Assembly: GCA_964016885.1 (NCBI GenBank)
Contig: OZ024746.1
Span: forward strand, 8,804,001 to 8,868,000
DNA length: 64,000 nucleotides
Direction of reading: 5' to 3'
From: Eledone cirrhosa
Taxonomy: Eukaryota
Below the pieces are notes generated by a model. It worked only from the letters and a program-made list of their open reading frames with translations, did no database searches and was not told the origin of the DNA. This document shows, piece after piece, positions 2,990-61,832 of this stretch (position 1 is the first letter of the stretch; every line of letters starts with the position of its first letter). Made by a program: the position numbers and the translations under genes.

Positions 2990-3112
2990 CTCTATATATC
3001 TATGTATCTGTCTATCTATCTATCTATCTATATATATATATATATAGATAGATAGATAGATAGACAGATACATAGATATATAGATAGACATACATACATA
3101 ATACTTATACAC

Positions 3113-3143
<31 letters not shown>

Positions 3144-3144
<1 letters not shown>

Positions 3145-3842
3145 GACGTTATAGTCGCATATATGTTATAGAATGCCGTTAGCTTCTTGCTAAAACAATC
3201 TCTATACCTGTCATTTATATTTATACTCGGATTCTTTTCCTAGAGTGCTTAAACTATCTGTGACTAATCCCGGTTTTTTTCATAAAAACTGTGATAATTA
3301 TTGCTATTTTGCTGAACTCCTTTGTAGAGTTTTTTTTTCAGAATGTATTTGACTGCTATTTCTTGTAAATAAACATTCACTTCCATCCTGACGTCACTAG
3401 CACCGTTTTTTCCTCATGTGCTTTTTCATAAATACACATGAAGGCGAACTAGCCAGTTTTAGAATTCCCTTTTCGGATTATATTACTGTGAGAGCCCTGG
3501 TTTTCTGTTGAGCTCTGCTGATGAATGAAATCCAACCGTGACCATCTCCACTGAAAGTTTTCATGAAATAGTCTTTTAAGACTATACAGAGCATTTGATG
3601 TTATTCCAAATTGAAGGATAAGTGTTTCAAACTTTATTTTATCATGAGTTAAAGGTCTATAGATTTTTCCCTGGATTTCACTAAATTCTGTGGATGAATT
3701 TATATCCTGATTCTCTTTTGAGATGAGTTTGAGTTATTTTTCCTAAATCTTTCGTTAACTACTTTTCCCATCTTGACGTTATAGTCGCATATATGTTATA
3801 GAATGCCGTTAGCTTCTTGCTAAAACAATCTCTATACCTCTC

Positions 3843-3850
<8 letters not shown>
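3144..3850 (+). mobile_element. (TA)n-flanked HHR-bearing element with 77-bp terminal direct repeats (period 630)
   Basis: 3144-3220 equals 3774-3850 with 1 mismatch; internal HHR present; a homologous copy lies at 39090-39520 on the minus strand. Confidence 0.8.
3512..3592 (+). ncRNA. Type I hammerhead ribozyme, intact core
   Basis: gctctg CTGATGA atgaaa[28 nt]tttcat GAA Atagtct ttta agactaT A|cagagc. Stem I 6 bp, stem II 6 bp, stem III 7 bp, AUA cleavage triplet. Confidence 0.88.
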
Positions 3851-3880
<30 letters not shown>

Positions 3881-3982
3881 CGTTTCTGAATTTGTTTAGT
3901 AAGATTCTTTATCTGAAAACGTGTGTTGAAACCGATATTGTGTATATATATGTGTGTATATATATATGTGTGTATATATATG

Positions 3983-6018: not shown

Positions 6019-6217
6019 AAAGTTCTATTTAAATTGTTGGGATACAACAAGCAAATATACGGGGTCGATAAAATAAAGTACCAGTAATACACTGGGTAAT
6101 TGCTGGCCTTGTGCCTAATGTAGAAATAATTATTATAACTGATATAAAGCACTCGACAAATATTTGGAGTAGATATACAATATTAATAAATGGAAACTAT
6201 ATTTATAAAACCATATT

Positions 6218-6282
6218 TATTTCATTATATATATTTCAAGGATACCAAGTTAAATCATGGCATGCCTTCATCAGACAAAATA
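6218..6282 (-). ncRNA. Type I hammerhead ribozyme (left arm of F1 hairpin)
   Basis: tattttgt CTGATGA aggcatgcca..tggtatcctt GAAA tatata TA|atgaaata, with a palindromic minimal stem III. Confidence 0.75.
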
Positions 6283-6389
6283 CAATATATAACAGTTTTA
6301 CAAATAGATATTGACGTACCCCTCCAAAAACAACGGTCACTTTTTTGAAAGGGTACGTCAATATCTATTTGTAAAACTGTTATATATTG

Positions 6390-6454
6390 TATTTTGTCTG
6401 ATGAAGACATACCATGATTTAACTTGGTATCCTTGAAATATATATAATGAAATA
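6390..6454 (+). ncRNA. Type I hammerhead ribozyme (right arm of F1 hairpin)
   Basis: tattttgt CTGATGA agacatacca..tggtatcctt GAAA tatata TA|atgaaata. Confidence 0.75.
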
Positions 6455-6508
6455 AATATGGTTTTATAAATATAGTTTCCATTTATTAATATTGTATATA
6501 TATATATA

Positions 6509-6687: not shown

Positions 6688-6701
6688 TATATATATATAT
6701 A

Positions 6702-6884
6702 TAGGAAAAGAGTCAGGACCTCGACGGCAGAGCTCACGCCGTCGGGGTCCAGAAATAGCTGTCGAAACGGCGTGAGCCCTGCCGTCAAAGTCTTGACTCT
6801 TTTCCTATTACCCACTCTACTACCCACAGTATCGAGTACTCTGGTGCCTTATGGTCCACCTGGATCCTTACCACACTTCCTTCG

Positions 6885-6886
<2 letters not shown>
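6702..6886 (+). mobile_element. Penelope-like hairpin cassette (F3) with 3' half of an HHR
   Basis: Arms 6702-6743 and 6767-6807 are inverted. GAAAcggc..gccgTC stem III present. The tail 6808-6886 is shared with 15494-15586 and 39839-40025. (TA)n on both sides. Confidence 0.8.
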
Positions 6887-6975
<89 letters not shown>

Positions 6976-7426: not shown

Positions 7427-7802
7427 AGAACAAAAGATGGTTAAAAGAGTTCCATGTATTTTATTATGCGCATTTCAAAAATAAACATCATCATGCAATA
7501 ATATTTGTGTTTTCATCAGATAAAACAGGAAGACATGATATGAAGGTTAAAAAACACTTGTGGATAGTGCAGTTTTAAATCAACATATGAAAAGTAGTTT
7601 TAGATTGATGTGTGATATTGGGAAAAATATTTTATTTTGGGGGTGGGTGGGTGGAAAGGATGAAATGCGCATAATAAAATACATTGAACTCTTTTAACCA
7701 TCTTTTGTTCTTATATATTATGTATACTCCAGTCCTACAAACTGTAGAGTGCTTCTTATCCGATATCTGCATTGCTTTATTGTACTACAATAAGACTCAC
7801 CT

Positions 7803-7805
<3 letters not shown>
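7425..7805. mobile_element. Penelope-like hairpin cassette (F5)
   Basis: 7425-7477 is inverted relative to 7661-7712, then a one-sided tail with TACTC...GAGTG; flanked by (TA)n. Confidence 0.8.
7458..7526 (-). ncRNA. Type I hammerhead ribozyme, intact core
   Basis: gttttat CTGATGA aaacac...gtttattttt GAAA tgcgca TA|ataaaat. Stem I 7 bp, palindromic stem III ATGCGCAT, AU-rich stem II. Confidence 0.75.
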
Positions 7806-7859
<54 letters not shown>

Positions 7860-8007: not shown

Positions 8008-8050
8008 GTCAAAGTTCTTTCGTCGCACATTTTGTGACCTCTTCAGTGAC
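8008..8050 (-). ncRNA. Minimal type I hammerhead ribozyme
   Basis: gtca CTGAAGA ggtcacaaaatgtgcgac GAAA gaac TT|tgac, inside a (TA)n-bounded segment 7855-8140. Confidence 0.7.
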
Positions 8051-8407
8051 TGGGGATTCTTTTCTTTGTTTTTGTGCGTCTCCTTTGTTCTGTCCTACGC
8101 CATCTTGTTTTGTTGTGTTTGTGTGCTTAGTTTGCACACACATATATATATATATATAATATATATATATATAATATATATATATATATGTGATAAATAT
8201 AAGTATATCCCCTCTTCACTATTATTCTAGCTCAAGTTGACCAGACAGATACATTCGAATGCTCATATAGACACACATGCATATAAACACTCACTAAGCT
8301 AGATATCTACACGCACAACCACTCTCTAACCATATAACCAAATAACACTTATATGAAGAGAATTTACAATTGGATAAATAATGCATAACTTTATTTGGAC
8401 AAACCAA

Positions 8408-8497
8408 GCCCCTGATGATACAGACAGTAAACCACCAAGCTCTTCGGAAATCAGTCAAGAACTAGCTGTTGAAACGGCAACGGCTCAACCGTTGGGT
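8408..8497 (+). ncRNA. Type I hammerhead ribozyme in a pLTR-like segment (about 8190-8600)
   Basis: gccc CTGATGA tacag...ctgtt GAAA cgg caacggctcaa ccg TT|gggt. The downstream tail ACTCtactaccccaagtattGAGT is related to F3. Confidence 0.78.
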
Positions 8498-9344
8498 CCC
8501 AACCTTTTATAATATAACCATACTCTACTACCCCAAGTATTGAGTACTCTGTTTAGTAATGATTTAACCAGTTTCCAACTGATTTCCTCCTGATTTATAT
8601 ATATATTTATATATATTTATACATTTAGTTAAAGTCGTTTCATTGTTCTTACTGCGGCCTTTTCTTATATCTATGACATAGTCCAACGTATCCTTTGGTA
8701 TTTAAGACTAGGCGTTAATACAAGAATCTTTTGACTGCTATTTCTAGCAACTTTAACAACCACTTAGAGGTTCACTTGTTGTCTGGACTGTTTATATAAT
8801 TTTGTTTTCAGTCATTCTCATAACGAAATTAATAATGTATAATACACTTTAAGTAGTAAAAGAAATAGAAGAAAGAAATTGGAAAACAAAATGCTCCAGT
8901 AGCTTAAAATAAGGACTGGAAACACAAAAACAAAAAAAAAACAAAAGAAATTGAAAAACAAAAGAGAAAATAGAAACGAAGAAAATGTTTTTGAAGTTAG
9001 GATATTTACTGATGGATTAACAGCTTCTGTCGTCATCAATCAGGATAAATTTTGTTCTGAAGAAATAAATGCCATAATTAAGTCATGTAATAGTGTAAAG
9101 AGGGAATTTTCCAGTGTATTTATCAAAGTGACACATACGAATCGATCCGTAAATCTCCTTCAGTCTGACGTAAAGAAATCATTTCCGATTTTCTTATGAC
9201 CTATTTTTAAATGTGTCAGTAGCAAACCAAACATTAGTCAGAATGTTCTCGGGTTATTTGAGATGGTGAGAGCAAGAGTTATCGAAAGCTCTCAGGGTAG
9301 GAAGCTGATTGTAAATGTTCGATAGTCTGGAATGTAGTACATAA

Positions 9345-9932: not shown

Positions 9933-11214
9933 CAACAATAACAACCATAATAATAACAACAGTAAGAACAATAATATTTTTTGTTCAGCCACTAGGGGCA
10001 ATTGTATGCATGTTCATTCACACATATAATTGCACAAAACGTTAAAAACGAGGGTGGTTATAGAAACTGTGGTTATCTGTGGCGAAGTGCCATACGATGA
10101 TGTGAAGGAATGTGATCAGGGATGGGACGCAAAAAGACATGAAAAACTGTAAACTATAACGATCATATAATAGATATATAACTATAAAGAAAACTCTCAC
10201 TAAGTAAAACAAAATATTATTTCAAAAGTACATAATCATTTAGAGTGAGAAGCTATATAGATGGGGATGGAACACTGCATATCTCTACTCTTTCATGACT
10301 ACTCATGTTACAGCTTTCTGAGACTAAAAGTACTTTGTAAGATTCTTTGTTAGACGAAACAAAACACATCCAAGCTTCTGCGGAAATTCGTCTTCAATAT
10401 ATAATAAACCTCTGGCGATATTTTCGACAGGTGTCTCTCTCGTGTGTACTTCCGATATTCTGTCTGATCCTAATATCTCTTCACCAGTTGATATATCTTC
10501 CTCTCTTGTCAATAACAGCTCCTTAACATGTTTTAAAAATTAATCGTTTATGCATCAAATGATTGTGAATTATTTTCTTCGCTGTGTTTCCCTTGCATTT
10601 GAATACTTTGATGTCGACCCCCTTTCCTTCTCTCTTGGGTTTCTTTCTTCTTCTTTTCCCCCGTCACGCCCAACTCATCTGCAGTCTTTGTTACAGCCCA
10701 TTATCACAAGATGATGGAATGTTGTTTGGTTAGGTAAGTACTCTTAATCATTAGCCCCTGAGACTGAGTACGTGAAGGACACTATAGTCCGTTGCGGAAT
10801 CGGGATTTATGTTGCTTGTTGTTGCTGTTGTTGTAATGGCTTGTATTACTGGTTGTTACACATGGGAGATGAAGATGTTTCTATGATTATTCACTTTTTC
10901 AGCCTTAGTTGAACTAATTACTATTACAGGTTCAGCCAAACACTATGTATAACAATTTTTATTGTCAGCAGTGTGTTGTACATAGATCAACCATAAGTGG
11001 ATAAACGAATGAAGAGGTGTGTTACTTGGTCTACTGCGCTGAGCTGAAGACCATATAACATACAAGAGAAACTCCAGAATAATAGGTCACTGACTTATGG
11101 TATAGAGTACCCATTCTCACATTCTGTTTTCTATAAACTTTTGAAAACCTTTCTTTATGACATCTAAAGCCCTCACCACTACCGGAATAGTTTGGGTTTT
11201 AAGGTGCTAATTAT

Positions 11215-11812: not shown

Positions 11813-11854
11813 TCTTCTTACTTCACTACCATGGACATCTTTGACTATCGTGAA

Positions 11855-12100
11855 GGCGCATGGCTTAGTGGTTAGAGCATTGGGCTTGCAATCGAAAGGT
11901 TGCGAGTTCAACTCTCGGACCGGGTGATGTGCTGTTTCCTTGAGCAAGACGATTTATTTCACGTTGCTCCAGTTTGCACAGCTGTAAAAATGAGATGATA
12001 GGACTAGGGTCCCTATCATTAAATCACCCAAGATACCTCCAACGAGATATACCTTGGAGGAGGCCAGCTAAACCTGCATAGGTGTGAGCTGTCACACACA
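11855..12100 (+). mobile_element. tRNA-derived SINE family B, full length, (CA)n tail
   Basis: A box TGGCTTAGTGG, B box GAGTTCAACTC, core ccttgagcaagac, 3' hairpin cctccaa..ttggagg. Copies at 22566-22800, 54297-54530 and 61199-61446. Confidence 0.9.
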
Positions 12101-15465: not shown

Positions 15466-15688
<223 letters not shown>

Positions 15689-22387: not shown

Positions 22388-22868
22388 GGCGGTCGATTAG
22401 CAGGATCAATAGAACGTCGGAAACCATGCTTCGTGGCATAGTTACGTCCCTTTATATTCTGAGTTCAAATCCCATCGAGGTTAGCTTAGCCTTTCATCCT
22501 TACGAGGTCGATAAAATAAAGTACCAGTCACGCACTGGAGTCGATTTAATCAAAGTCCTTCTCATAGCTTAGTGGTTAGAGCATTGGGCTTGCAAGCGAA
22601 AAGTTGTGCGTTCAATTCTCGGACCGGGTGATGTGTTGTTTCCTTCAGCAAGACACTTTATTTCACGTTGCTCCAGTTTACTCAGCTGTAGAAATGAGAT
22701 GACTGGGGTCCCTATCATTAAATTACCCAAGACACCTCCAACGAGATATACCTTGGAGGAGGCCAGCTAAACCTGCATAGGTGTGAGCTGTCACACACAA
22801 CACACACACACAACACACATTCCTCCACAAATAATTGCTGGCCTTGTGCCTAAATCAGAAACCATTAT
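22388..22868 (+). mobile_element. SINE A interrupted by a nested SINE B (22566-22800)
   Basis: SINE A head and core, then SINE B with (CA)n, then the SINE A tail; outer TSD ttattacgcactta. Confidence 0.9.
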
Positions 22869-25109
22869 TACGCACTTATATTCTTTTGATATTTTATATA
22901 ATTTTTCCAATAATTCTCACCCTCCTTAATCAATCTCACCGCTGCTTTCCCTGCATCTACAAACTTATAATCTTCTGTTACTTATACCCACATAATTAAA
23001 CTTGTTTTACTACTACAGTCTATGATTTATTGTTTGTTTCTCCCGTTATTTAACCCCTGGGTCATGAGAAACATTACCATTTAAACTTTACTAATGTAAA
23101 AAAAAGAAAATGCAATATATATATATATATATATATACAAACCTAATTCTAATTGAATTAGTAATTTTATCATGTGTTTTGTTCATAGGTTCAGGGGGCT
23201 ATGTCTGCGCCTGAAATTTACAGAAGCGTACCAAGATGATGAGATTAAGGTATGTGGTAGAAAACTGAGAAAATCTGTTTTCTGACTCTCATAGAATACA
23301 CACACTGTCTTTCTTTTCCACTCCCCCCGCCCCTCTCTCTCTTCCTCTTCTTACACATATACACAAATCGCACCTCTAAGACAACAGAGGTCAGTAAGCA
23401 ATGCACGGTTTAAACTGAAAAAAGACCATATAATAATATATTTTCTAACACATCAGGCGATTTAGGACGATTAGTTTCGGATACGTGACTTAATAACTAA
23501 TGTTTTCCGGTGAGTTTAGCGAAGGATAGTTAGTTCAAATGTCTTTATTTACTTATCCGTCTGCACAATCGCCACGTGTTCGAATTACATTATGTCGGAT
23601 AATTTTTTCTTCTGTAAAGACCCGTGCTAGGGTATATTTATCCATCACTAGCCAGCCTATTGATTCTAGTTCTAGAGCTAATCACGGATTTTATAAATCC
23701 CAGAAGTTCACAGAAATATAAAAAAAAAATAATATATACATCTAAGTAATGATTGAAAATCTATTTATGAATTTAGTTTTATTCAATTTACTTCGTTGCA
23801 GCACGCTCGGATATAATTGTAAAATTGATGATGGATTATTGTTGTTGAATGAAAGCACACTTTTGGATGAAGTCAATGGGTGAGTAGTGAGTAAGAGTGT
23901 GGGATAGATATTAATTGAAGTCTTGCCAATAATTTGGATCCACTTCTCAATCGAGGTCAAACTGTTTTTATGTTTCGTGACTGAAAACAAAAGCAATTCA
24001 GCTTCAGCGAGATTTATATTTGTTAAATTCAATATTATTTCTTGGCAGCTGACTGATGATGCTATATTTTAGTTGAGAATATAAAAAATTATAAAATAAA
24101 ATAAATATCACTGGGGATATCTACAATAATCTTTTGGCTTCTGTGAGGTGAGTTTATAGGTCAGAGAACATGTGAACTTTTGTGAAAATATGCTGTAAAA
24201 GACGTGCTATTTCGACGCCATGTTATTTTGGAGCAGAATAATGACGATGATTCTTAAAGACTGTAAACATTATCTTTTCCCAAACCGGATAGTTATTTGA
24301 AATATTCATAGCAGGCGAGGTTGGTGCTCCATTTACCTCTTGGCTCTGAAAACGATAACGTGAATTATCGCAATATACTTTGCTAGCTTACCTATGCAAA
24401 AAATGAAAGGTGTTTATAATTAATTAATACATAATTACGATGCCAGATTTCATTGTTTTATAGTAAAGACTTCCCATAGGCTGAAACGTTCTCACACTAC
24501 ATTCCTATTTTAATTAATTGTTTCGTCAGCATTTCATTTTTGTTTCATTTCCCGTCTTAAATATGGTGAGCTGAAATCAATTACAGAACGTTCATATATG
24601 AGGCTTCAGATAATAATTAACAAACTAAGTATTTTCCCACTTACAAATCTTCAATTTCTAACCGGTTATGATTCTGTTGGTTGATATCTCAGAAACTTTC
24701 GTATGAATTAAGCTCACCATACACAAAACAAAAGATATTCTCCTCCTCAAATACATAACGAAGATGTAGAAATGAAGTTCAATATAGAAACATAAAGAGG
24801 AAATTTACAAACGTTAGTTTGTAACAGGATATTCACTGAAGTAAACAGAAAAAATTACAGAAGCCAACTTATTACATATTGCTTGCAAATACGAATAAGG
24901 TAAAACGCAGATAACAAAAGATTACTAATTATTAAAGGAAACAGTAATAAAAAAGTGATTCGTTGCGTTGAAAAGCTGCACATATCACATTTAATTAAAC
25001 TCTCCCACTTTAAATACATTTATAGTAAAACAACATTTTTAGAAAATTGGTTTCGAAGAAGGGCAGCGCTCAACATCTCAAGCGTCTAAAATAATCAATA
25101 TCTGGAAAA

Positions 25110-25378
25110 ATGACAGTGCCCATGACAGTGCCCATGACAGTGCCCATGACAGTGCCCATGACAGTGCCCATGACAGTGCCCATGACAGTGCCCATGACAG
25201 TGCCCATGACAGTGCCCATGACAGTGCCCATGACAGTGCCCATGACAGTGCCCATGACAGTGCCCATGACAGTGCCCATGACAGTGCCCATGACAGTGCC
25301 CATGACAGTGCCCATGACAGTGCCCATGACAGTGCCCATGACAGTGCCCATGACAGTGCCCATGACAGTGCCCATGAC
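25110..25378. repeat. Perfect 12-bp tandem repeat (ATGACAGTGCCC) x22.4
   Basis: Directly visible with no mismatches. Confidence 0.97.
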
Positions 25379-26674
25379 CATCCGGAGTACATAAGTAACC
25401 TATGTCTTAAGTTTGGTGAACATACTGTAGAAATGCATAAGGTTTATACATACGCGCGTGCGTTCGTGTGTGTGTGTGGGGGGGGTATGTATTTGTGTGT
25501 GCGTATGTATGTGTATGTCCGTCGGGACATACGTATGTACTGGCCTAAATCTTCACTATTTAATTTTACTATTTTAATAACCTCTGTCATTTTCGTTTTC
25601 AATTTTATTTACATCATTCTTAAACCCCGAGGCTGGAAATCATTCTGTTATGTTAAATAGAATATTAGTCTAACGACTCCATTTATGCCATAAACTTGGT
25701 CTTGTCTTTGCATGAAATTGTTCTTCACGATCCACATAATGACGTATTATCCTCGCTTTTTTCCCGTTCATTGCCAGGGAACGTCTTCACGAACCAAAAT
25801 ATCGTCTTCCTGTTTTCGTTCGGTTGCAACGTTTCTCGAAATATTTAATTCTGCGTTCACAGATTACTCTCAGTTCAATTTGAATGGGAAATTCCTGTTT
25901 CATCGATTTTCTCCGTAACAATGGAAGCTTGTAGCTTGAAAGTCGACCCAACGCCTCCTCGGGTCATTCTGCATAACTGTGTAAATTTTCGCTGCATTCC
26001 ACCAAGCGGTTTCGACGTTTATCCGACTACACCTACATATACAACCTCCGGCCACTTCCAATTTATATAGTAGATTTGTTTATACATGAATGAGAAAAAG
26101 AAAGTACAAAACTATACATGAATTGTTTCTACTAAACCTTCAATTTAAGACACAACCTACATATTTGATAGCACTCCAGCTCACACCTTCTTCTTCTTCT
26201 TCTTCTTCTTCTTCTTCTTCTTCTTCTTCTTCTTCTTCTTCTTCTTTTGCTCCCCCTGGAACATTGGCCGCCGAGCCACCCTCACACAACGCCATGTTCT
26301 TAGTCTGCTTTTCAACTCCACCGTGATGTACGGTGCGTCATGGTGTATCTAACCATTTTTTTAGGTCTTACTACGGCTGATTTCTTCCAGAGAGAAAGAA
26401 AGAGATGGAAAAAGGCAGAGAAGATTCATCCCCGGAGGAATAATAAAAAATGTTTACACTGCACATTTCATTTTTTCAAAGCTAAAGCTGCCGATCCAAA
26501 ATCAGTAATTCAACTCCCTGAAAACTTTCAAATATATGCTGTTCTAGCATGAATATTATGCTAAGGGGCAGCTGTCCACAAAGTAAGATTTACTTGCATA
26601 TCCCCGCTCATATAAACACATAAATACATGCATACATACATTACAGTTGATATTTTTTTTATTAAAGCGTTTTC

Positions 26675-27142: not shown

Positions 27143-27459
27143 ATGAAAACCAGCCATATAGTAGGTTGTTAGTATCATGTCAAGAACACTGCATTGTATA
27201 AGTAATAAACACAACAACGCTATGAAAACCAGCCATATAGTAGGTTGTTAGTATCATGTCAAGAACACTGCATTGTATAAGTAATAAACACAACAACGCT
27301 ATGAAAACCAGCCATATAGTAGGTTGTTAGTATCATGTCAAGAACACTGCATTGTATAAGTAATAAACACAACAACGCTATGAAAACCAGCCATATAGTA
27401 GGTTGTTAGTATCATGTCAAGAACACTGCATTGTATAAGTAATAAACACAACAACGCTA
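27143..27459. repeat. 79-bp tandem repeat, 4 identical copies
   Basis: Unit starts atgaaaaccagcc at 27143, 27222, 27301 and 27380. Confidence 0.97.
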
Positions 27460-29789: not shown

Positions 29790-30083
29790 TAAATATCATC
29801 TTGGTTAAGAGAGTGGGACTGGCTTTGTGCAGTGCCTTTGCTCACTATAAAAGCTTCACGGCACAGGCATTGCTTTATATCTGAAGATCTCTCTGCACTT
29901 GTCGTCACATGGTACCATGGGCCCAGCACTATGTGTCAGTAATTGTCACAGGTGTAGTGTTTGTACCAGAGTTTTCAAGTCGCTGGCTGGACTAAAATGT
30001 CACACTCGTTCAGCGCATCGGTAGGAGTTCTCCTACATGGATATGAAGTAGTGGCCGTACTCGAAAACGAGTTGGCAGCCACC
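29790..30083 (+). mobile_element. 5'-truncated copy of the RTE-derived non-autonomous element
   Basis: Near-identical to the reverse complement of 43838-44130; ends gagttggcagccacc(TA)n. Confidence 0.85.
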
Positions 30084-30086
30084 TTA

Positions 30087-30120
<34 letters not shown>

Positions 30121-30231
30121 GAGAGAGAGAGTCAAAATAATAATAAATGTGAAGACTAAAATCCAAAGGGTGAAAGCAGCGATTCTTTGCTTAAACTTTA
30201 ATTTGTTATTTTATTATATATATATATATAT

Positions 30232-30747
30232 GGTCAGGTCGTTCTCGAGTGCATGTAACACACTACAACCTGTCTCATGGTCGGGTCCTCGGCGACTAAA
30301 CCAGCAACCCCACCAAGCTTGCTTAGTGCGGAGGGTTATATTTGAACACCTTGCAGGATGAAATACAAGACCCGGCAGAGGGCGGAGGAACTCAGCAGAG
30401 TCAACAGCCATCGAAATAGTACTTTTTTGTTTTCACCCGGAAGTGACAGGCCCCCAGTTGTTCTCACAACATCTCTCTAAGAGAGGAAAACTCTGAAAAA
30501 AAAAACCTGTCGTTTCGGAATAATCCGATGATGTTGACCAGGTCTCCTTTTCGGGTAGTGTTTTCGATGCTCAGAGAGTGGGATTGGTCGAGTGCAAGGC
30601 CTTTCCCCACTTAAACAACCTTCAAAGCAGAGGCATTCCTTTTTAGGATTTGTTACAAGTTCGTGTGGCTCGCCGTAGCTTAAAAGTGCATTATTTCTAT
30701 AATCTGACAAGCGATTGCAAAACTCTTAGCAGAGTTTGCAGCCATCA
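30232..30747 (+). mobile_element. Diverged sister family of the RTE-derived non-autonomous element
   Basis: Shares the gtcaggtc start, ggcgactaaac..gcaaccccaccaag, ggaaaactctga and the gcagcca(t/c)ca end with 43838-44444. Confidence 0.75.
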
Positions 30748-32574: not shown

Positions 32575-32924
32575 TACGAGTTAATTCATATCGTATAAGA
32601 TATTCTGAAAACCTTTGTAGTAATACTAAACATATTTATACAGTGTGAAACATATGTTACATTGAGTGATGTCTAATATTTTTGGAGCACTTGTCATATT
32701 TATATAACCAAATTCGAGTCAAGGAAGGAACATCTGAATAGTTGCTGAGATTTAGAGAAAGAGCTACCATTGTATAAACGAAGGAAAGAAGCAACTGATA
32801 ATGTAACCATATGAAACATTACACAAATAAAGAAGGCAGGATGGTTAAGGCTGGAATACTTTGTTTTCATGAGTAAAGCCGAGTTGGGACTAAACAATGA
32901 CTAGAACATCCCAAAAATATTACA

Positions 32925-39006: not shown

Positions 39007-39089
<83 letters not shown>

Positions 39090-39094
<5 letters not shown>

Positions 39095-39520
39095 GAAAGG
39101 TATAGAGGTTGTTTTAACGAGAAGCTAATAGTATTCTATAACATATACGCGACTATATCGTCAAGATGGGAAAAGTAGTTAACGTAAGATTTAGGAAAAA
39201 TAATTCAAACTCATCTCAAAAGAGAATCAGGATACAAATTCATCCACAGAATTTAGTGAAATCCAGGGAAAAATCAATAGACCTTTAACTCATGATAAAA
39301 TAAAGTTTAAAACACTTATCCTTCAATTTGGAATAATATCAAATGCTCTGTATAGTCTTAAAAGACTATTTCATGAAAACTTTCAGTGGAGATGGTCACG
39401 GTTGGATTTCAATCGTCAGCAGAGCTCAACAGATAACGAGGGCTACCACAGTATTATAAGCCGAAAAGGGAATTATAAAACTGGCTAGTTCGCCATCATG
39501 CGTGATTATGAAAACGCACA
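39090..39520 (-). mobile_element. Second copy of the 3144-3850 family, with HHR at 39345-39425
   Basis: Aligns to about 3416-3848. HHR gctctg CTGACGA ttgaaa..tttcat GAAA tagtcttttaagacta TA|cagagc; ends at the same nucleotide in (TA)n. Confidence 0.88.
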
Positions 39521-39696
39521 TATATATATATATGGAAAAGAATGAAATGAAATTTCATTTCTCACTCTTAGTACGGCTGATACTCAAATACAAGTATGTA
39601 TGCGTACATACATATATGTATACAGACGTACAGTAGTATGCATATATATACATACATGCAGACATATATATATATATATATATATATACACGTATG

Positions 39697-39784: not shown

Positions 39785-39838
<54 letters not shown>

Positions 39839-39842
<4 letters not shown>

Positions 39843-40023
39843 AACCAGTAAGACCCCGACAGCTGAGCTCAAGCCGTTTCGACGGCTAATTCTCATTAGC
39901 CGTCGAAACGGCTTGAGCTCAGCTGTCGGGGTCTTACTGGTTCCTATTACCCACTCTACTACCTCAAGTATTGAGTACTTTGGTGCGTTATGGTCCACCT
40001 GGTTCCTTACCACATTTCCTTCG

Positions 40024-40025
<2 letters not shown>
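39839..40025 (+). mobile_element. F3 hairpin cassette with perfect ~53-bp arms, 4-nt loop and tail
   Basis: taggaacc...ggctaat tctc attagcc...ggttccta, then the tail; half-HHR GAAAcggc..gctgTC|gggg. Confidence 0.88.
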
Positions 40026-40276: not shown

Positions 40277-40329
40277 CTGCCTGAAGAGGTCACAGCCAAT
40301 AATAGCTGTCACCGAAATATATATAGCAG
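40277..40329 (+). ncRNA. Type I hammerhead ribozyme, intact core
   Basis: ctgc CTGAAGA ggtcacagc caataata gctgtcacc GAAA tatata TA|gcag, with a canonical G-C pair opening stem II. Confidence 0.85.
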
Positions 40330-40451
40330 AGAATGTATAATTTATAATAAACGAAGCCATATTTTACATTACTCCGGAGTAAACAAACCAACCTGTGTAC
40401 TTCGTCGAGTGCTTCAATCTGCATATTGAGATGTTGGTAAACAACCAACAT

Positions 40452-41080: not shown

Positions 41081-43152
41081 TACAATATATTAATAAATGG
41101 AAACTATCTTTATAAAACCATATTTATTTTATTATATATATTTCAAGGGCAACCAAGGCAAATTATGGTGCGCTTTCATCAGATAAAATACAGAATTTTT
41201 TATAAATAAATATTGACATACCCGGAAAAAAAAGACAACCTTAACGGTTGGAGCTTCCTGGATAGTGCAGTACATTTATTGAGGGTGATACAAAGTTATG
41301 AGTGAGTATGCAAATGAGTGTCCGAAAGGTTGAAAAGATAACGGTTTATTTAAATTAAACTGTTGGAAGAAGATGATATGTAAGGGAGAGCGAAAAAAAT
41401 AGAAAAAAGAAAAAAAGAAAAAAGAAAAAAAAGGAGAAAGATAGAAGAGGAAAGAAAGAACGATTATATATATTGATAATGAAAATAGAGTGCATGAAGA
41501 GATAAATATAAACAGCCTAAGTATATCTAAAAGGGAGAAGAAATGATAATAATGTGAAAGAATAATATTTATAATGCAGGATTCATTACGTTTTGATTAT
41601 AATACTTATAATGATAGGTTGAAAAATTAGTTTAAAATTAAATTAAAATTAAAAATTAGAAATCAAAATTAAAGATTAAAATTTACCTTAATATTAAAGA
41701 TTTAATATAATAATTTAATATTAATAATTAGTTTAAATATTAAGGATTATAAATTATTTAAATAAATATATAGTATTTTACATTAGAGCAAATCTAGTAT
41801 AGTTTATTTTATTAAAAGTTGTAAGTCAAAATTTAAACATCCAAATAATTCTAAATTTATGAAAAATTTACGAGAGTTTACAAAAGAATAACCACTTAGT
41901 TATATTATAAAAACAGTAAGGAAGTGTAAAGGAAGTTAGAAGTGATTTTTTAAGAACTCAGATGACTCTAAGGATTAAATGTTATAAAGTTAAACAGTTA
42001 AACATTTTTTATCTTAAGAATATAATTAAAACATGAACCATGTGTTATTTCATACGAAGTCATAAATTTACTTGCTATAAAGTTAAAACATTAACATTAA
42101 AATCAAAACATTAAAAAAATTTATCTTAAGAATATATTTAAAGCATAAACCATAGGTTATTCCACATATATATAAAAAACCTATATATAAAAATCATATG
42201 TTTTTCCACATATATATAAACATTTGGATATATATATTAAAAACGTTTGAAGATATAAAAAATATAAAAATATAAAAATATTGGAAGTTATGAAAATAAT
42301 GGTTTTCCTATATCATTCAAAGGAATTTTCAAAAGATTTTTCATAAAACCTTCCGTAAGTTTTTCAATAAAAATTTTTTTCTTAAAGGAGTTTCAAGCAG
42401 TCATATAAAATTTTTTTTATAATCTATCGATAGGTGTAATAATTTTAAGTATATAGTATATATATGTGAAGTAAAGATATGAATCATATATAGATATAGA
42501 AGACATTATGTAAAAGAGATAAGTCATATATTACATTTTATATATATATTTAAAAGTTGAATTTAAACGATGTTTGCAGGACTGAATAAATTATTTCGCA
42601 AATTAATAGAGTTCTTACTTTTTAGTATAAAGAATATTTCTTCAACACAAAGAGAACAATTTTGGGATAAAGCAGTGTATGAAGGAGCTTTGGAAATAAT
42701 TTTCCAAAGTAAAGAATAGTTAATATTCTTGGATTTCAGGTCCGATAATAAGTTAGATAGAAAAGTTGAAGATTTTTTACCAATATTCGTAAAGGTACAT
42801 TTATGGTTATTAAAACGAGATATGAAGTCAGTGGAAGTAGAGCCGACATAGTTAAAGGAGTTTTCATTTGTTTTGACATTACAATTGTATACTATCTCCA
42901 CTATCCAGGAAGCTCCAACCGTTAAGGTAGTCTTTTTTCCGGGTATGTCAATATTTATTTATAAAACAAATCTGTATTTTATCTGATGAAAGCGCACCAT
43001 AATTTGCCTTGGTTGCCCTTGAAATATGTATAATAAAATAAATATGGTTTTATAAATATAGTTTCTATTTATTAATATATTGTATATTTACTCCACTAAA
43101 TTGTTGAGTGCTTTTTATCAGTTATAACAAATTTTAAATTAAATATAACCTC

Positions 43153-43156
<4 letters not shown>
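41081..43156 (-). mobile_element. 5'-truncated Penelope-like retroelement (Naiad-type) with inverted pseudo-LTRs
   Basis: ~186-bp inverted arms at 41081-41267 and 42899-43084, each with an HHR (41125-41190 on -, 42975-43040 on +; 8-bp stem I tattttat/ataaaata). Tail 43085-43156. Internal GIY-YIG remnant and AT-rich UTR. Confidence 0.85.
42550..42901 (-). pseudogene. GIY-YIG endonuclease domain of a Penelope-like element
   Basis: IVY..YVGST..F..RF.NHK..F..ST.LS...LK...W.I....SY......CSLC.EE...N.R, and CKHR after a frameshift. The CxxC...CxH extension is typical of Naiad-type endonucleases as I recall. Confidence 0.88.
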
Positions 43157-43838: not shown

Positions 43839-44444
43839 GGTGGCTGCCAACTCGTTTTCGAGTACGGCCACTACTTTATATCCATATAGGAGAACCCCTA
43901 CCGATGCGCTGAACGAGTGACTTTTTAGTCCAGCCAGCGACTTGAAAACTCTGGTACAAACACTACACTTGTGACAAATATTGACACATAGTGCTGGGCC
44001 CATGGTACCCTGTGACGACAAGTGCAGAGAGATCTCCAGATATAAAGCAATGCCTGTGCCGTGAAGCTTTTATAGTGAGCAAAGGCACTGCACAAAGCCA
44101 GTCCCACTCTCTTAACCAAGATGATATTTACCAAAAAGAAGAACAAGTCAACATCATTGGATACCATCAGGGTTGCAGGTGTTATATCAGAGTTTTCCAT
44201 CTCCTAGAATTCTGCCTTGACAAAGGCTAAGGGGTCATCTCTCCCGGTGATTTTGGATGGCCATTGACTCTTAAGAGCTCCTTTGCCCTTTGACAGGTTT
44301 TGTTTTTAGTCCTGCAGGATGTCCAAAGTCACCCTCCTCACCAAGAAACCTTGGTGGGGTTGCCAGTTTAGTCGCCAACGACCCGACCATGGGTCAGGTT
44401 GTACTGGGATACATGTTACCAGTAGCACCAACTGGTGACCTGAC
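43838..44444 (-). mobile_element. Bipartite RTE-derived non-autonomous retroelement (~605 bp)
   Basis: RTE 5'UTR-like motif aggagatggaaaactctga fused to an RTE 3' end encoding the C2H2-like remnant CSVCTRVFKSLAGLKSH; (TA)n tail; no RT. Confidence 0.75.
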
Positions 44445-46094: not shown

Positions 46095-46866
46095 TGAGAA
46101 AAAGGCTACAGAAGGCATGCCAATGGCTGCGCAAGAGCAGGGCCTCAGAACGAAGTGGGTTTAACACCATATTTACAGGGAAGAGGCTAGCCCACTGTGT
46201 AGGATCTGTGGAGAGAGAGAGGAGACTGTGGCTTACATTGTATCCGAGTGTAAACATTTAGCCCAGACTCACTATAAAAGCTGGAGACATGATGTGATGG
46301 GCAGGGTGATCCACTGGCACCTATGCAAAGTAAACAATTTACCACATTCTGAGAAGTGATATGAGCATAAGCCAGAGTCGGTGATAGAAAACGATCAGGT
46401 GCTATGGGACTTTAGGATACAGACGGACAAAAAATTAGAACACAATAGGCCTGACCTGGTGCTTTTGGACAAGGAAAAAAGATCGTGCCTGATTATAGAT
46501 GAAGCCAGCCCATTTGAAACAAGAGTGCAAGAAAAGGAGAGGGAGAAAATTAACCGATACCAGGACTTAAAGTGGGAAGTAAAAAGGATTTGGAACTGCC
46601 ATGAAGTCAGGGTCATCCCGATTGTCATAGGCGCACTAGGTACTATCTCAAAGAATTTCCAAGGATGGTTAAAGAAGATTAGTCCAGCCCCGCTTTTGGG
46701 AACATTTCAAAAGGCATGCTTGCTGGGAACAGCAAGAACCCTCCGATACGTCCTGAATATCTGAGGCTACAGGTAGCGGCTTGATATTCATTTCAACAAA
46801 CTTTCCAGTTAAATAACATCAATGACTGAGACTCAAAGAATAAAAATAATAATAATAATAATAATA

Positions 46867-54296: not shown

Positions 54297-54530
54297 TTGT
54301 GTGTGACGGCTCACCCCTACGCAGGTTCAGCTGGCCCCCTCCAAAGTATATCTCGTTGAAGGTGTCTTGGGTAATTTAATGATAGGGATCCCAGTCCTAT
54401 CATCTCATTTCTACAGCTGAATAAACTGGAGCAATGTGATATAGAAACAACACATCACCCAGTCCGAGTATTGAACTACAACCTTTCGATTGCAAGTCCA
54501 TTGCTCTAACCACTAAGCCATGCGCTTTCA
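54297..54530 (-). mobile_element. SINE B
   Basis: Reverse complement of the 11855-12100 family. Confidence 0.88.
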
Positions 54531-55119
54531 CTGTTGCAAATCATTATTTAACGAAGAAGAAAACCGTCAGCAATGTGATGTTTCTTGTTCTATCTATGCT
54601 ACCCAGCTAGATAAATACATTTACATTTATATTTAGAAATATTTATGTGTATATAAACTGTATACATTTTGTATAGATACATTCAAAATATTCTTTATAT
54701 GACCTAAGCCGCTCAGTAACAAAGTGACAAGACGTACTTCTTGTTTGAGTAACGAGAGTTCGAAGGATTTGTAAACATGGAAGCTAGTGTGTGCTTACAT
54801 GTAGATGTATGGAGATACATACACATCATAAGTATACGAGATGTATCTCTAGGACATGGGTTACAGTGTGTCTATATGTGTGTGCGGTTGAGAATCTGTG
54901 TGGTTGTGATGGTGTGAGATTGATATGTGTTAGGGTGTCTGTGTGTGTGTCGGTGTGAGTATGTGTCTGTTTGTGTTTGGTATATGTATATATCACCAAT
55001 GCATCTATGCATGTGTGTATGCATGTATGTATGTATGTATGTATGTATGTATGTATGTATGTATGTATGTATGTATGTATGTATGTATGAATACATACGT
55101 GTATGATTTATATGTTTAT

Positions 55120-56142
55120 GAGGAGAGTGTACGTGTGTGTATGTATGCAGGACAGTGTACGTGTGTGTATGTATGCAGGAGAGTGTACGTGTGTGTATGT
55201 ATGCAGGAGAGTGTATGTGTGTGTGGTGTATGTATGCAGCAGAGTGTACGTGTGTGTATGTATGCAGGAGCGTGTACATGTGTGTATGTATACAGGACAG
55301 TGTATGTGTGTGTATGTATGCAGGAGAGTGTATGTGTGTGTGTGTATGCAGGAGAGTGTATGTGTGTGTATGTATGCAGGAGAGTGTATGTGTGTGTATG
55401 TATGCAGGAGAGTGTATGTGTGTGTGGTGTATGTATGCAGGAGAGTGTATGTGTGTGTATGTATGCAGGAGAGTGTATGTGTGTGTATGTATGCAGGAGA
55501 GTGTATGTGTGTGTGGTGTATGTATGCAGGAGAGTGTATGTGTGTGTATGTATGCAGGAGAGTGTATGTGTGTGTATGTATGCAGGAGAGTGTATGTGTG
55601 TGTGGTGTATGTATGCAGGAGAGTGTACGTGTGTGTATGTATACAGGACAGTGTATGTGTGTGTATGTGTACAGGAGAGTGTATGTGTGTGTATGTATGC
55701 AGGAGAGTGTATGTGTGTGTATGTATGCAGGAGAGTGTATGTGTGTGTATGTATGCAGGAGAGTGTATGTGTGTGTGGTGTATGTATGCAGGAGAGTGTA
55801 TGTGTGTGTATGTATGCAGGAGAGTGTATGTGTATGTATGCAGGAGAGTGTATGTGTGTGTATGTATGCAGGAGAGTGTATGTGTGTGTATGTATACAGG
55901 AGAGTGTATGTGTGTGTATGTATGCAGGAGAGTGTACGTGTGTGTATGTATACAGGAGAGTGTATGTGTGTGTATGTATACAGGAGAGTGTATGCGTGTG
56001 TATGTATGCAGGAGAGTGTATGTGTGTGTATGTATGCAGGAGAGTGTATGTGTGTGTATGTATGCAGGAGAGTGTATGTGTGTGTATGTATACAGGACAG
56101 TGTATGTGTGTGTATGTATACAGGAGAGTGTATGTGTGTATG
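55120..56142. repeat. 28-bp minisatellite (gcaggagagtgtatgtgtgtgtatgtat), roughly 35 units, with 33-bp variants
   Basis: Directly visible; it explains the 340-400 aa ORFs. Confidence 0.95.
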
Positions 56143-61198: not shown

Positions 61199-61446
61199 TG
61201 TGTGTGTGACAGCTCACACCTATGCAGGTTTAGCTGGCCTCCTCCAAGGTATATCTCGTTGGAGGTGACTTGGGTAATTTAATGGTAGGGACCCCAGTCC
61301 TATCATCTCATTTCTACAGCTGAGTAAACTGGAGCAACGTGAAATAAAGTGTCTTGCTCAAGGAAACAACACATCACCTGGTCCGAGAATTGAACTCACA
61401 ACCTTTCGATTGCAAGCCCAATGCTCTAACCACTAAGCCATACGCC
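61199..61446 (-). mobile_element. SINE B
   Basis: Full-length reverse copy with (TG)n on the tail side. Confidence 0.9.
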
Positions 61447-61832
61447 TGTTGTTTTGGTTCAGCTCATCTCCGTTTAACAAGAGAAAATCATATAATCAAA
61501 GGAATTCTAACCGTGACTCCTCCTTCCTTTCCATATATACTTAGAATCTTTGTTTACATAATCAAATATGTCATTTTTTTAATGGTACGGTGGGATTTGA
61601 AAGAGATTTTGCTGCTTTTTCTAGCAAATCGAGCAACTACAAATAAGCTACACTTTGCGTCGACTTCATACATACTAGTTAGAATTGGTGTCTATAATGG
61701 ATTCCATAAACTGCATTACTTCAAGGCTGTTATTAGTGACTCTATCAATCTTTACTTTCTTGAATACACACACGCACACATATATATATATATAAATAAA
61801 TACATATATATATATATATATTTATTACATAT

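Follow-up and report, generated by a model that had tools for sequence, protein, structure and literature searches.

A non-coding hammerhead ribozyme locus with a Penelope-type end signal in Eledone cirrhosa

Related elements and anatomy of the locus

PLEs of the Hydra clade, which have been described from Octopus among other hosts, target (TA)n, carry a sense hammerhead near the 3' end, form partial tandems of pLTR and tail, and undergo 5' truncation; according to the sections of PMC8557442 and its supplement used here, stem II of their hammerheads has U.U or A-U at its base, and a bulged tail hairpin can be made out by eye in three of six consensus sequences. The locus described here is like them in all of these respects. 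It is unlike them in having no ORF, in its size (630 nt, against 2-3 kb), in a 7-bp stem III where theirs is minimal, in a 130-nt rod between ribozyme and tail, and in a pLTR of 77 nt, which is too short for a second ribozyme. Animal non-LTR retrozymes, for which an origin from PLEs or mobilisation by them has been proposed (PMC7229834; 10.64898/2026.07.22.740005), resemble the locus in being non-coding, with a type I hammerhead, a GC content below 50% and a self-paired unit, and 630 nt falls inside their reported range of 51-972 bp (10.64898/2026.07.22.740005). In contrast to these, our locus is not a tandem of at least two ribozyme-bearing units, canonical loop 1-loop 2 contacts are not evident, and the unit exceeds the 170-400 nt of invertebrate circles. 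A working definition holds that two ribozymes are needed for unit release (10.64898/2026.07.22.740005), and monomers of retrozyme families are known; the same report, which covers vertebrate and four invertebrate genomes, may contain similar families.

MRC1, a non-autonomous PLE of the Chlamys clade (PMC8557442), is also non-coding and pLTR-forming, and has terminal signals in common with autonomous families. It belongs to another clade and host, most Chlamys elements are without hammerheads according to the same source, and the element described here has only the tail motif, and no extended 3' sequence, in common with the autonomous remnant nearby. Plant LTR retrozymes are comparable in size (circles of 600-1000 nt) and have a direct repeat at both ends; as described, they carry a type III hammerhead in each LTR, a PBS, a PPT and 4-bp target duplications, whereas the ribozyme here is of type I and none lies inside the repeats. 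The element belongs to an already known kind of genomic parasite.

The locus (3144-3850, + strand) consists of 707 non-coding bases, and carries a hammerhead ribozyme and a Penelope-type end signal. It lies in AT-rich, microsatellite-rich animal DNA, of which the whole stretch analysed, 64,000 nt in length, is referred to as the window. Repeats were mapped by BLAST on the masked window, as a direct-repeat finder was swamped by microsatellites. The features are the following.

3118..3144, no strand: left target tract, (TA)n; T3144 is common to tract and element
3144..3220, + strand: R1, the final 77 nt of the element repeated upstream, forming a short pLTR without ribozyme; 76/77 identical to R2
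3224..3250, + strand: PLE tail hairpin, candidate RT-initiation or recognition signal (putative function), from motif and descriptor
3251..3415, + strand: segment X, non-coding, present in one copy within the window
3416..3511, + strand: segment 5' of the ribozyme, common to copy B, with 12 differences in 3417-3505
3512..3592, + strand: type I hammerhead with a 7-bp stem III, predicted cleavage 3586/3587
3615..3744, + strand: rod-like hairpin for which 49 pairs are predicted, with a mean probability of 0.92 per pair; stability is confined to the ribozyme strand
3774..3850, + strand: R2, the element's 3' end without tail; 76/77 identical to R1
3851..3877, no strand: right target tract, (TA)n
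39087..39522, - strand: copy B, 5'-truncated, flanked by (TA)n at either end, stem II base of its hammerhead (core 39419) formed by U.U; matches 3417-3850
41081..43155, - strand: Hydra-type PLE remnant with GIY-YIG (42958-42566), inverted pLTRs, minimal hammerheads 41182 and 42983, and tail hairpin 43090-43112

The 77-bp direct repeat that, in the original prediction, bounds a 630-bp unit was recovered as 3144-3220 and 3774-3850, matching at 76 of 77 positions with a period of 630 and a single mismatch (G3210/C3840); BLAST of the region against the window gave no leftward extension. Equally as predicted, the second repeat runs into the 3851..3877 (TA)n tract without a tail. The unit begins with the tail hairpin, followed after a spacer of 260 nt by the hammerhead, the rod hairpin and the 77-nt end, and the locus holds 1.12 units and one ribozyme. 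Its GC content is 33%, and 58% of the unit is paired when folded as a circle (circular z -4.1). Both ends of this copy and of copy B adjoin (TA)n, such tracts accounting for 3,262 of the 64,000 bases. No (TA)n is found within 3144-3850, which argues for a single continuous insertion event.

The claimed absence of coding capacity was likewise borne out, by frame lengths and by negative results with Pfam and an endonuclease profile. The longest ATG frames read round the unit have 31 aa (+) and 40 aa (-), a six-frame Pfam search gave nothing at E < 0.2 for the element, and a Hydra-type endonuclease profile (best 150 of 2,157 homologs) had no positive score anywhere in 3144-3850. For a 94-codon open stretch at 3733-3452, a search of proteins of near length gave one candidate, none at E <= 0.01, and no usable Atlas match. 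The ORF combining RT with a C-terminal GIY-YIG, as found in autonomous Hydra-clade PLEs, is absent from the element. A by-eye Cys/His pattern in segment X was considered as a decayed Hydra endonuclease C-terminus and rejected, the profile reaching 134 bits at 42922-42521 and at most 0 in the element. A splice-acceptor-like run with an ATG (about 3330-3345) was also rejected; it opens a frame of 8-9 codons, and no donor was identified. With regard to SINE features, Rfam gave no tRNA match in the element, and a pol III A and B box consensus had no sense-strand match at two mismatches.

Elsewhere in the window, a dispersed family of about 190 nt occurs in many copies among the matches listed. Of two dispersed SINE-like families, the first is represented by 2805-2990 and many copies. 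The second (11850-12100, 22563-22791, 54298-54531 and 61209-61447) has a tRNA-like head, with an Rfam match at 11861-11918. Tandem repeats occur at 27143-27459 (79 nt), 25050-25445 (12 nt) and 55081-56141 (28 nt), and the units of the 79-nt and 12-nt arrays are perfectly identical. A two-copy repeat in opposite orientation (29790-30645 and 43839-44415; 96% over 294 nt and 69% over a further 398 nt) is probably a non-LTR retrotransposon fragment. An open frame of 134 codons at 46360-46761 (+) has no Pfam match; judging by its motif, we take it to resemble the C-terminal restriction-like endonuclease of a site-specific non-LTR retrotransposon.

The ribozyme and a second copy

The hammerhead has its core at 3518, with a 6-bp stem I (3512-17/3587-92), a 6-bp stem II (3525-30/3559-64) and a 7-bp stem III closed by a 4-nt loop (3568-74/3579-85), and cleavage is predicted after 3586. 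A descriptor search detected seven hammerheads in the window, compared with none in nine of ten shuffles and one in the tenth. The long stem III is confined to the 3518 core, the remaining six having a minimal stem III; the hammerhead is as the original prediction had described it. No hammerhead core lies inside the 77-nt repeats. None of the Rfam hammerhead families was matched at gathering score in the window, or up to E=10 in 3100-3900, possibly because loop 2 and stem III are atypical. Taken alone, the 96-nt ribozyme has a modest MFE z-score of -1.8, so that the case for a hammerhead rests on the core and the three stems; within the folded unit, all three have probabilities of 0.64-1.0. 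Stem II is closed by an A-U pair, as in five of the six minimal hammerheads of the window; canonical hammerheads typically close it with G-C (PMC4209133). An exact 28-nt ribozyme pattern was absent from the bacterial and archaeal genomes searched, which is what an element of animals would lead one to expect. From this structural model, the 3512..3592 ribozyme may be capable of self-cleavage; one survey reported self-cleavage in vitro for one of nine predicted retrozymes.

BLAST of the region against the window identified a second copy, B, at 39521-39059 (-), with 93.7% identity over 463 nt. It starts at the equivalent of 3417 and ends at that of 3850, thus representing 0.7 unit, and lacks 3221-3415. 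The 5' ends of the two copies differ, and a fixed 3' end with variable 5' truncation is seen in both, a small sample. Since copy B carries the 77 nt as its own end, the 77-nt repeat is the element's 3' end, and a target-site duplication is ruled out as its origin. R1 and R2 differ at 1 of 77 positions and B and R2 at 9 of 77, from which we conclude that the duplication postdates the split of the two copies; a young duplication is expected if one reverse transcription produced both R1 and R2.

The 29 substitutions are distributed unevenly: 12 in 89 nt upstream, 2 in 92 in the ribozyme, 6 in 176 in the hairpin region and 9 in 77 in the repeat. The core, comprising the hammerhead and the 130-nt hairpin, has 8 in 268, compared with 21 in 166 for the flanks (scan test, p ~0.0015). 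From this comparison of two copies only, the pattern is as would be expected if the core were selected in replicating lineages. The rod hairpin region (3600-3773) has a z-score of -3.9 on the + strand and +0.8 on the - strand. Four substitutions fall at paired positions of the rod, of which three keep the pair and one breaks it; none is part of a two-sided compensatory change. Stem II of copy B is predicted to form poorly. The U.U at its base need not mean decay, as the same form occurs in 14 of the 26 Hydra rows of a published hammerhead table.

The tail hairpin and neighbouring Hydra-clade PLEs

The tail that the original prediction had placed after the first repeat was named there by the pattern ACTC...GAGT. 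This bare pattern has 10 matches in the window, against 7.0 expected, which is chance level, but the longer motif TACTC-N-GAGTGCTT has 4 matches against 0.04 expected, and the tail is therefore real. It forms a hairpin (3224..3250) that has 5 bp in its lower stem, 3 bp in its upper stem and a 3'-side bulge of 2 nt, and is followed by GCTT. Seven of eight motif matches satisfy a bulged-hairpin descriptor (lower stem, upper stem of at least 3 bp, 2-nt 3' bulge), which in 100 shuffles was satisfied never in 93 and once in 7. The base pairs covary between families, at a bulge size of 2 only, a size picked after inspection; sizes 0, 1 and 3 give almost no pairing, and the 3224..3250 hairpin itself pairs at size 3 too. 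Folding energies of single tail hairpins are unremarkable (z -0.2 to -1.8).

The other three of the four matches to the longer motif lie directly 3' of PLE-type ends (6171, 7725 and 43089). Each of these tailed ends has an inverted tail-less sister, and two of the three run into (TA)n. Together with the 3144-3850 locus, the tailed and tail-less pairs number four (6226/6446, 7661/7465 and 43032/41133 being the others), the tail-less end stopping a few bases before the hairpin, and the ends of R2 and copy B are in register with these tail-less PLE ends. The suggestion of a partial-tandem pLTR, made in the original prediction, is well supported: in the join between repeat and tail, in the way the end without tail passes into (TA)n, in its target and in the style of its hammerhead, the locus agrees with local Hydra ends.

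In the published Hydra consensus sequences (supplement of PMC8557442), the hairpin is clear by eye in Hydra-2_Amil and Hydra-2_Ajap, as a 3' tail, and in Hydra-1_Ajap, at the 5' start and twice; it is near in Hydra-1_Crog, and was not seen in Hydra-1_Amil or in Hydra-1_Obim from Octopus. Its occurrence elsewhere both as a 3' tail and as a 5' start fits its position here, at the joint of two units. For four 7-mers in the supplement of Craig et al., the matches listed (the first seven for each, which precede the Hydra file) included no evident tail hairpin, and are no test of specificity. The literature searched, with most subscription journals and Repbase outside its scope, held no description of the tail hairpin or of an octopus retrozyme.

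Other sequences in the window carry related signals. A further family (6700-6887, 39830-40025, 15480-15583 and 8400-8595) has the same tail hairpin; two of its copies are foldbacks centred on half a hammerhead, and the core at 8412 has a long stem II insert. At 40281-40440 there is a minimal hammerhead with core CTGAAGA, whose tail includes the motif's 3' half, more widely spaced, and a related core lies at 8046 (-). Positions 10737-10769 (-), one of the eight motif matches, meet the tail descriptor with no hammerhead nearby and with a weak endonuclease-profile match (5.4 bits) upstream, at 10963-10856; this is possibly a very old PLE remnant, or chance.

The Hydra-type PLE remnant at 41081-43155 retains a GIY-YIG C-terminal part on the - strand, frameshifted near its end, a 3' region of 1.3 kb, and a tail at one end only. 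The best 150 of 2,157 homologs of the GIY-YIG remnant (42958-42566; E <= 0.001, exhaustive search) give the consensus CxxC..E..N..CxH; no full-length relatives were found among 638 candidates from a word-index search. CxxC and CxH around conserved E and N, together with (TA)n targeting, are the Hydra-clade pattern (PMC8557442). BLAST of the masked window showed, among the matches listed, no DNA similarity between the 3144-3850 element and this PLE beyond the tail motif, and the distance from ribozyme to tail is 269 nt in the element, compared with 56-58 nt at two local PLE ends. The remnant shows the type of partner to be considered, and is not the direct parent of the element. Two short head-to-head inverted insertions of PLE ends, at 6130-6500 and 7427-7810, have minimal hammerheads (6274-, 6398+ and 7519-) and one tailed and one tail-less end each; the former is about 76% related to the element at 41-43 kb.

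Origin of the insertion

We are confident that the locus represents a real, non-coding, PLE-dependent hammerhead element. Its non-coding nature, its hammerhead and its PLE-type ends support the original classification as a non-autonomous hammerhead retroelement. The explanation we favour, and hold to be probable, is that it is one insertion of a non-autonomous derivative of Hydra-clade PLEs with a 630-nt unit, mobilised by an RT-endonuclease acting in trans; that this unit is heritable we regard as rather likely. In such a mechanism, the RT-endonuclease of an autonomous Hydra PLE would nick the (TA)n tract, and cDNA synthesis would begin internally on the RNA, at 3850, immediately 5' of the tail hairpin. 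The starting point is suggested by another clade, that of Poseidon, in which AT-rich DNA is nicked and RT then initiates within the RNA at two tail-flanking positions in a stem-loop (PMC11167929). Copying would then pass the intact hammerhead, the whole unit and 77 nt of the next unit, giving the order pLTR-tail-unit, and copy B would be the product of the same reaction halted after about 435 nt. An intact hammerhead junction, together with more than one unit of sequence, points to a template that was either a circle closed by ligation or a tandem transcript of a master locus elsewhere that had remained uncleaved, to which we would assign nearly equal chances, leaning slightly towards the transcript. 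In the Poseidon-clade system, ribozyme cleavage is not required, uncleaved RNA being the main in vitro substrate (PMC11167929).

Several observations count against this explanation. The window holds the element in no tandem arrangement, its 7-bp stem III contrasts with the short stems of Hydra hammerheads, and 3221-3415 occurs in a single copy and is missing from B, which weakens the case for a heritable 630-nt unit. On the same side are the lack of DNA similarity to the local Hydra PLE beyond the tail motif, the longer distance from ribozyme to tail, the two Hydra consensus sequences in which the hairpin was not seen, the broken pair in the rod, and the motif match at 10737-10769 with no hammerhead nearby. 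The lack of tandem units and of 3221-3415 in copy B are two of the three findings that the original prediction had named in advance as contrary to it, as judged from the 64 kb searched.

The earlier proposal, that a 630-nt circle was reverse-transcribed over 1.1 laps, fits the locus, but it is possible to obtain the same DNA from a tandem, uncleaved linear template or by a template jump. Copying of more than one unit of a circle was proposed for PLEs in 2014 (PMC4209133) and for retrozymes in 2020 (PMC7229834), and the circle is thus a standing hypothesis. The junction 3586/3587, put forward as a test for it, is not diagnostic: it is contiguous in the genome, so that a read across it is no proof of a circle. 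Our tentative version of this proposal is that a 630-nt circular RNA may parasitise Hydra-clade PLEs, the insertion being the print of 1.12 laps and the tail stem-loop the start of RT; such an RNA would have replaced a dimer-dependent minimal ribozyme by a monomer-competent one, gained the rod hairpin, and retained only the bulged tail stem-loop. As the locus has a single ribozyme, no unit-length monomer or circle can be released from it, and it falls outside the working definition of an active retrozyme. We therefore do not class it as one, although the element behaves like a retrozyme or a mini-PLE. The 3144-3850 copy, with its one ribozyme and a 3' end without tail, is probably a dead end.

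An unlikely alternative to a heritable unit is a one-off junction, in which a longer PLE, of autonomous or non-autonomous type, left only its 3' end after 5' truncation, and this was joined by template jump to a second short cDNA of 77 nt plus tail, begun at the distal RT site and in direct orientation; the period of 630 nt would be accidental, and no 630-nt RNA would ever have existed. PLE insertions are usually 5'-truncated, with direct or inverted partial tandems and a tail at one end (PMC8557442), RT initiation at two tail-flanking sites has been reported (PMC11167929), three other insertions in the window join tailed and tail-less truncated ends, and segment X is single-copy in the window. 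Against such a junction stand the lack of any ORF remnant in X or elsewhere, the 150-homolog endonuclease profile not being positive in 3144-3850, and a long stem III and rod hairpin unlike ordinary Hydra 3' ends; no seam is visible in 3250-3415, though a single copy could not reveal one.

It is highly improbable that a multi-unit retrozyme array, with at least two ribozymes and making 630-nt circles, was collapsed by assembly to 1.1 units. The unit does fold well as a circle in which the hammerhead remains able to form, a property described for the majority of animal retrozyme circles (PMC7229834), and the window, with 12,829 of 64,000 bases masked, is rich in microsatellites, a class of sequence that is hard to assemble. 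The sequence nevertheless bears no sign of collapse, a 1.1-mer is an ordinary PLE product, and copy B is of sub-unit length.

Segment X shows a marginal resemblance to weakly related, degenerate repeat segments at 8722-8800, 61585-61690 and 32685-32795. The 16-mer present at both 3348 and 8730, on which a possible capture of genomic DNA had been based, was confirmed but is weak evidence, since matches of at least 16 nt occurred in 2 of 200 shuffles of 3251-3415 and in 5 of 100 of the whole unit. We consider it very doubtful that segment X represents host DNA, a decayed piece of a repeat acquired by read-through transcription or transduction between a tail and a B-like copy, or that the direct repeat is a local duplication unrelated to retrotransposition: 33 of 44 positions agree between 3339-3382 and 8722-8765, a segment weakly related to others at 61607 and 32769, and copy B begins 35 nt downstream of this match, but a profile of the three related segments scores the element at 6.7 bits (E 0.33), no (TA)n separates X from the ribozyme segment, and copying R2 could not have placed the tail hairpin after R1 in the right register.

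So far, the case for mobilisation of animal retrozymes by PLEs has relied on co-occurrence and on similarity of pLTRs, mostly in vertebrates. To this, the locus adds the anatomy of an invertebrate case, a non-coding hammerhead element with the tail signal and the target of Hydra PLEs at its insertion ends, and a 630-nt RNA could be used to test the circular versus tandem origin of PLE pLTRs. If segment X is a one-off, the locus would be an ordinary truncated PLE insertion, and only the hairpin would still be of interest. A covarying tail hairpin common to Hydra PLEs may be the more novel part of our results; if it is the RT start signal, it would constitute a short, defined RNA motif that is testable in the format of the existing in vitro PLE assay. 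If the tentative reading of a 630-nt circular parasite is true, this hairpin, as it occurs in coral and sea-cucumber Hydra PLEs, would be a cis-signal that licenses any RNA for insertion into (TA)n.
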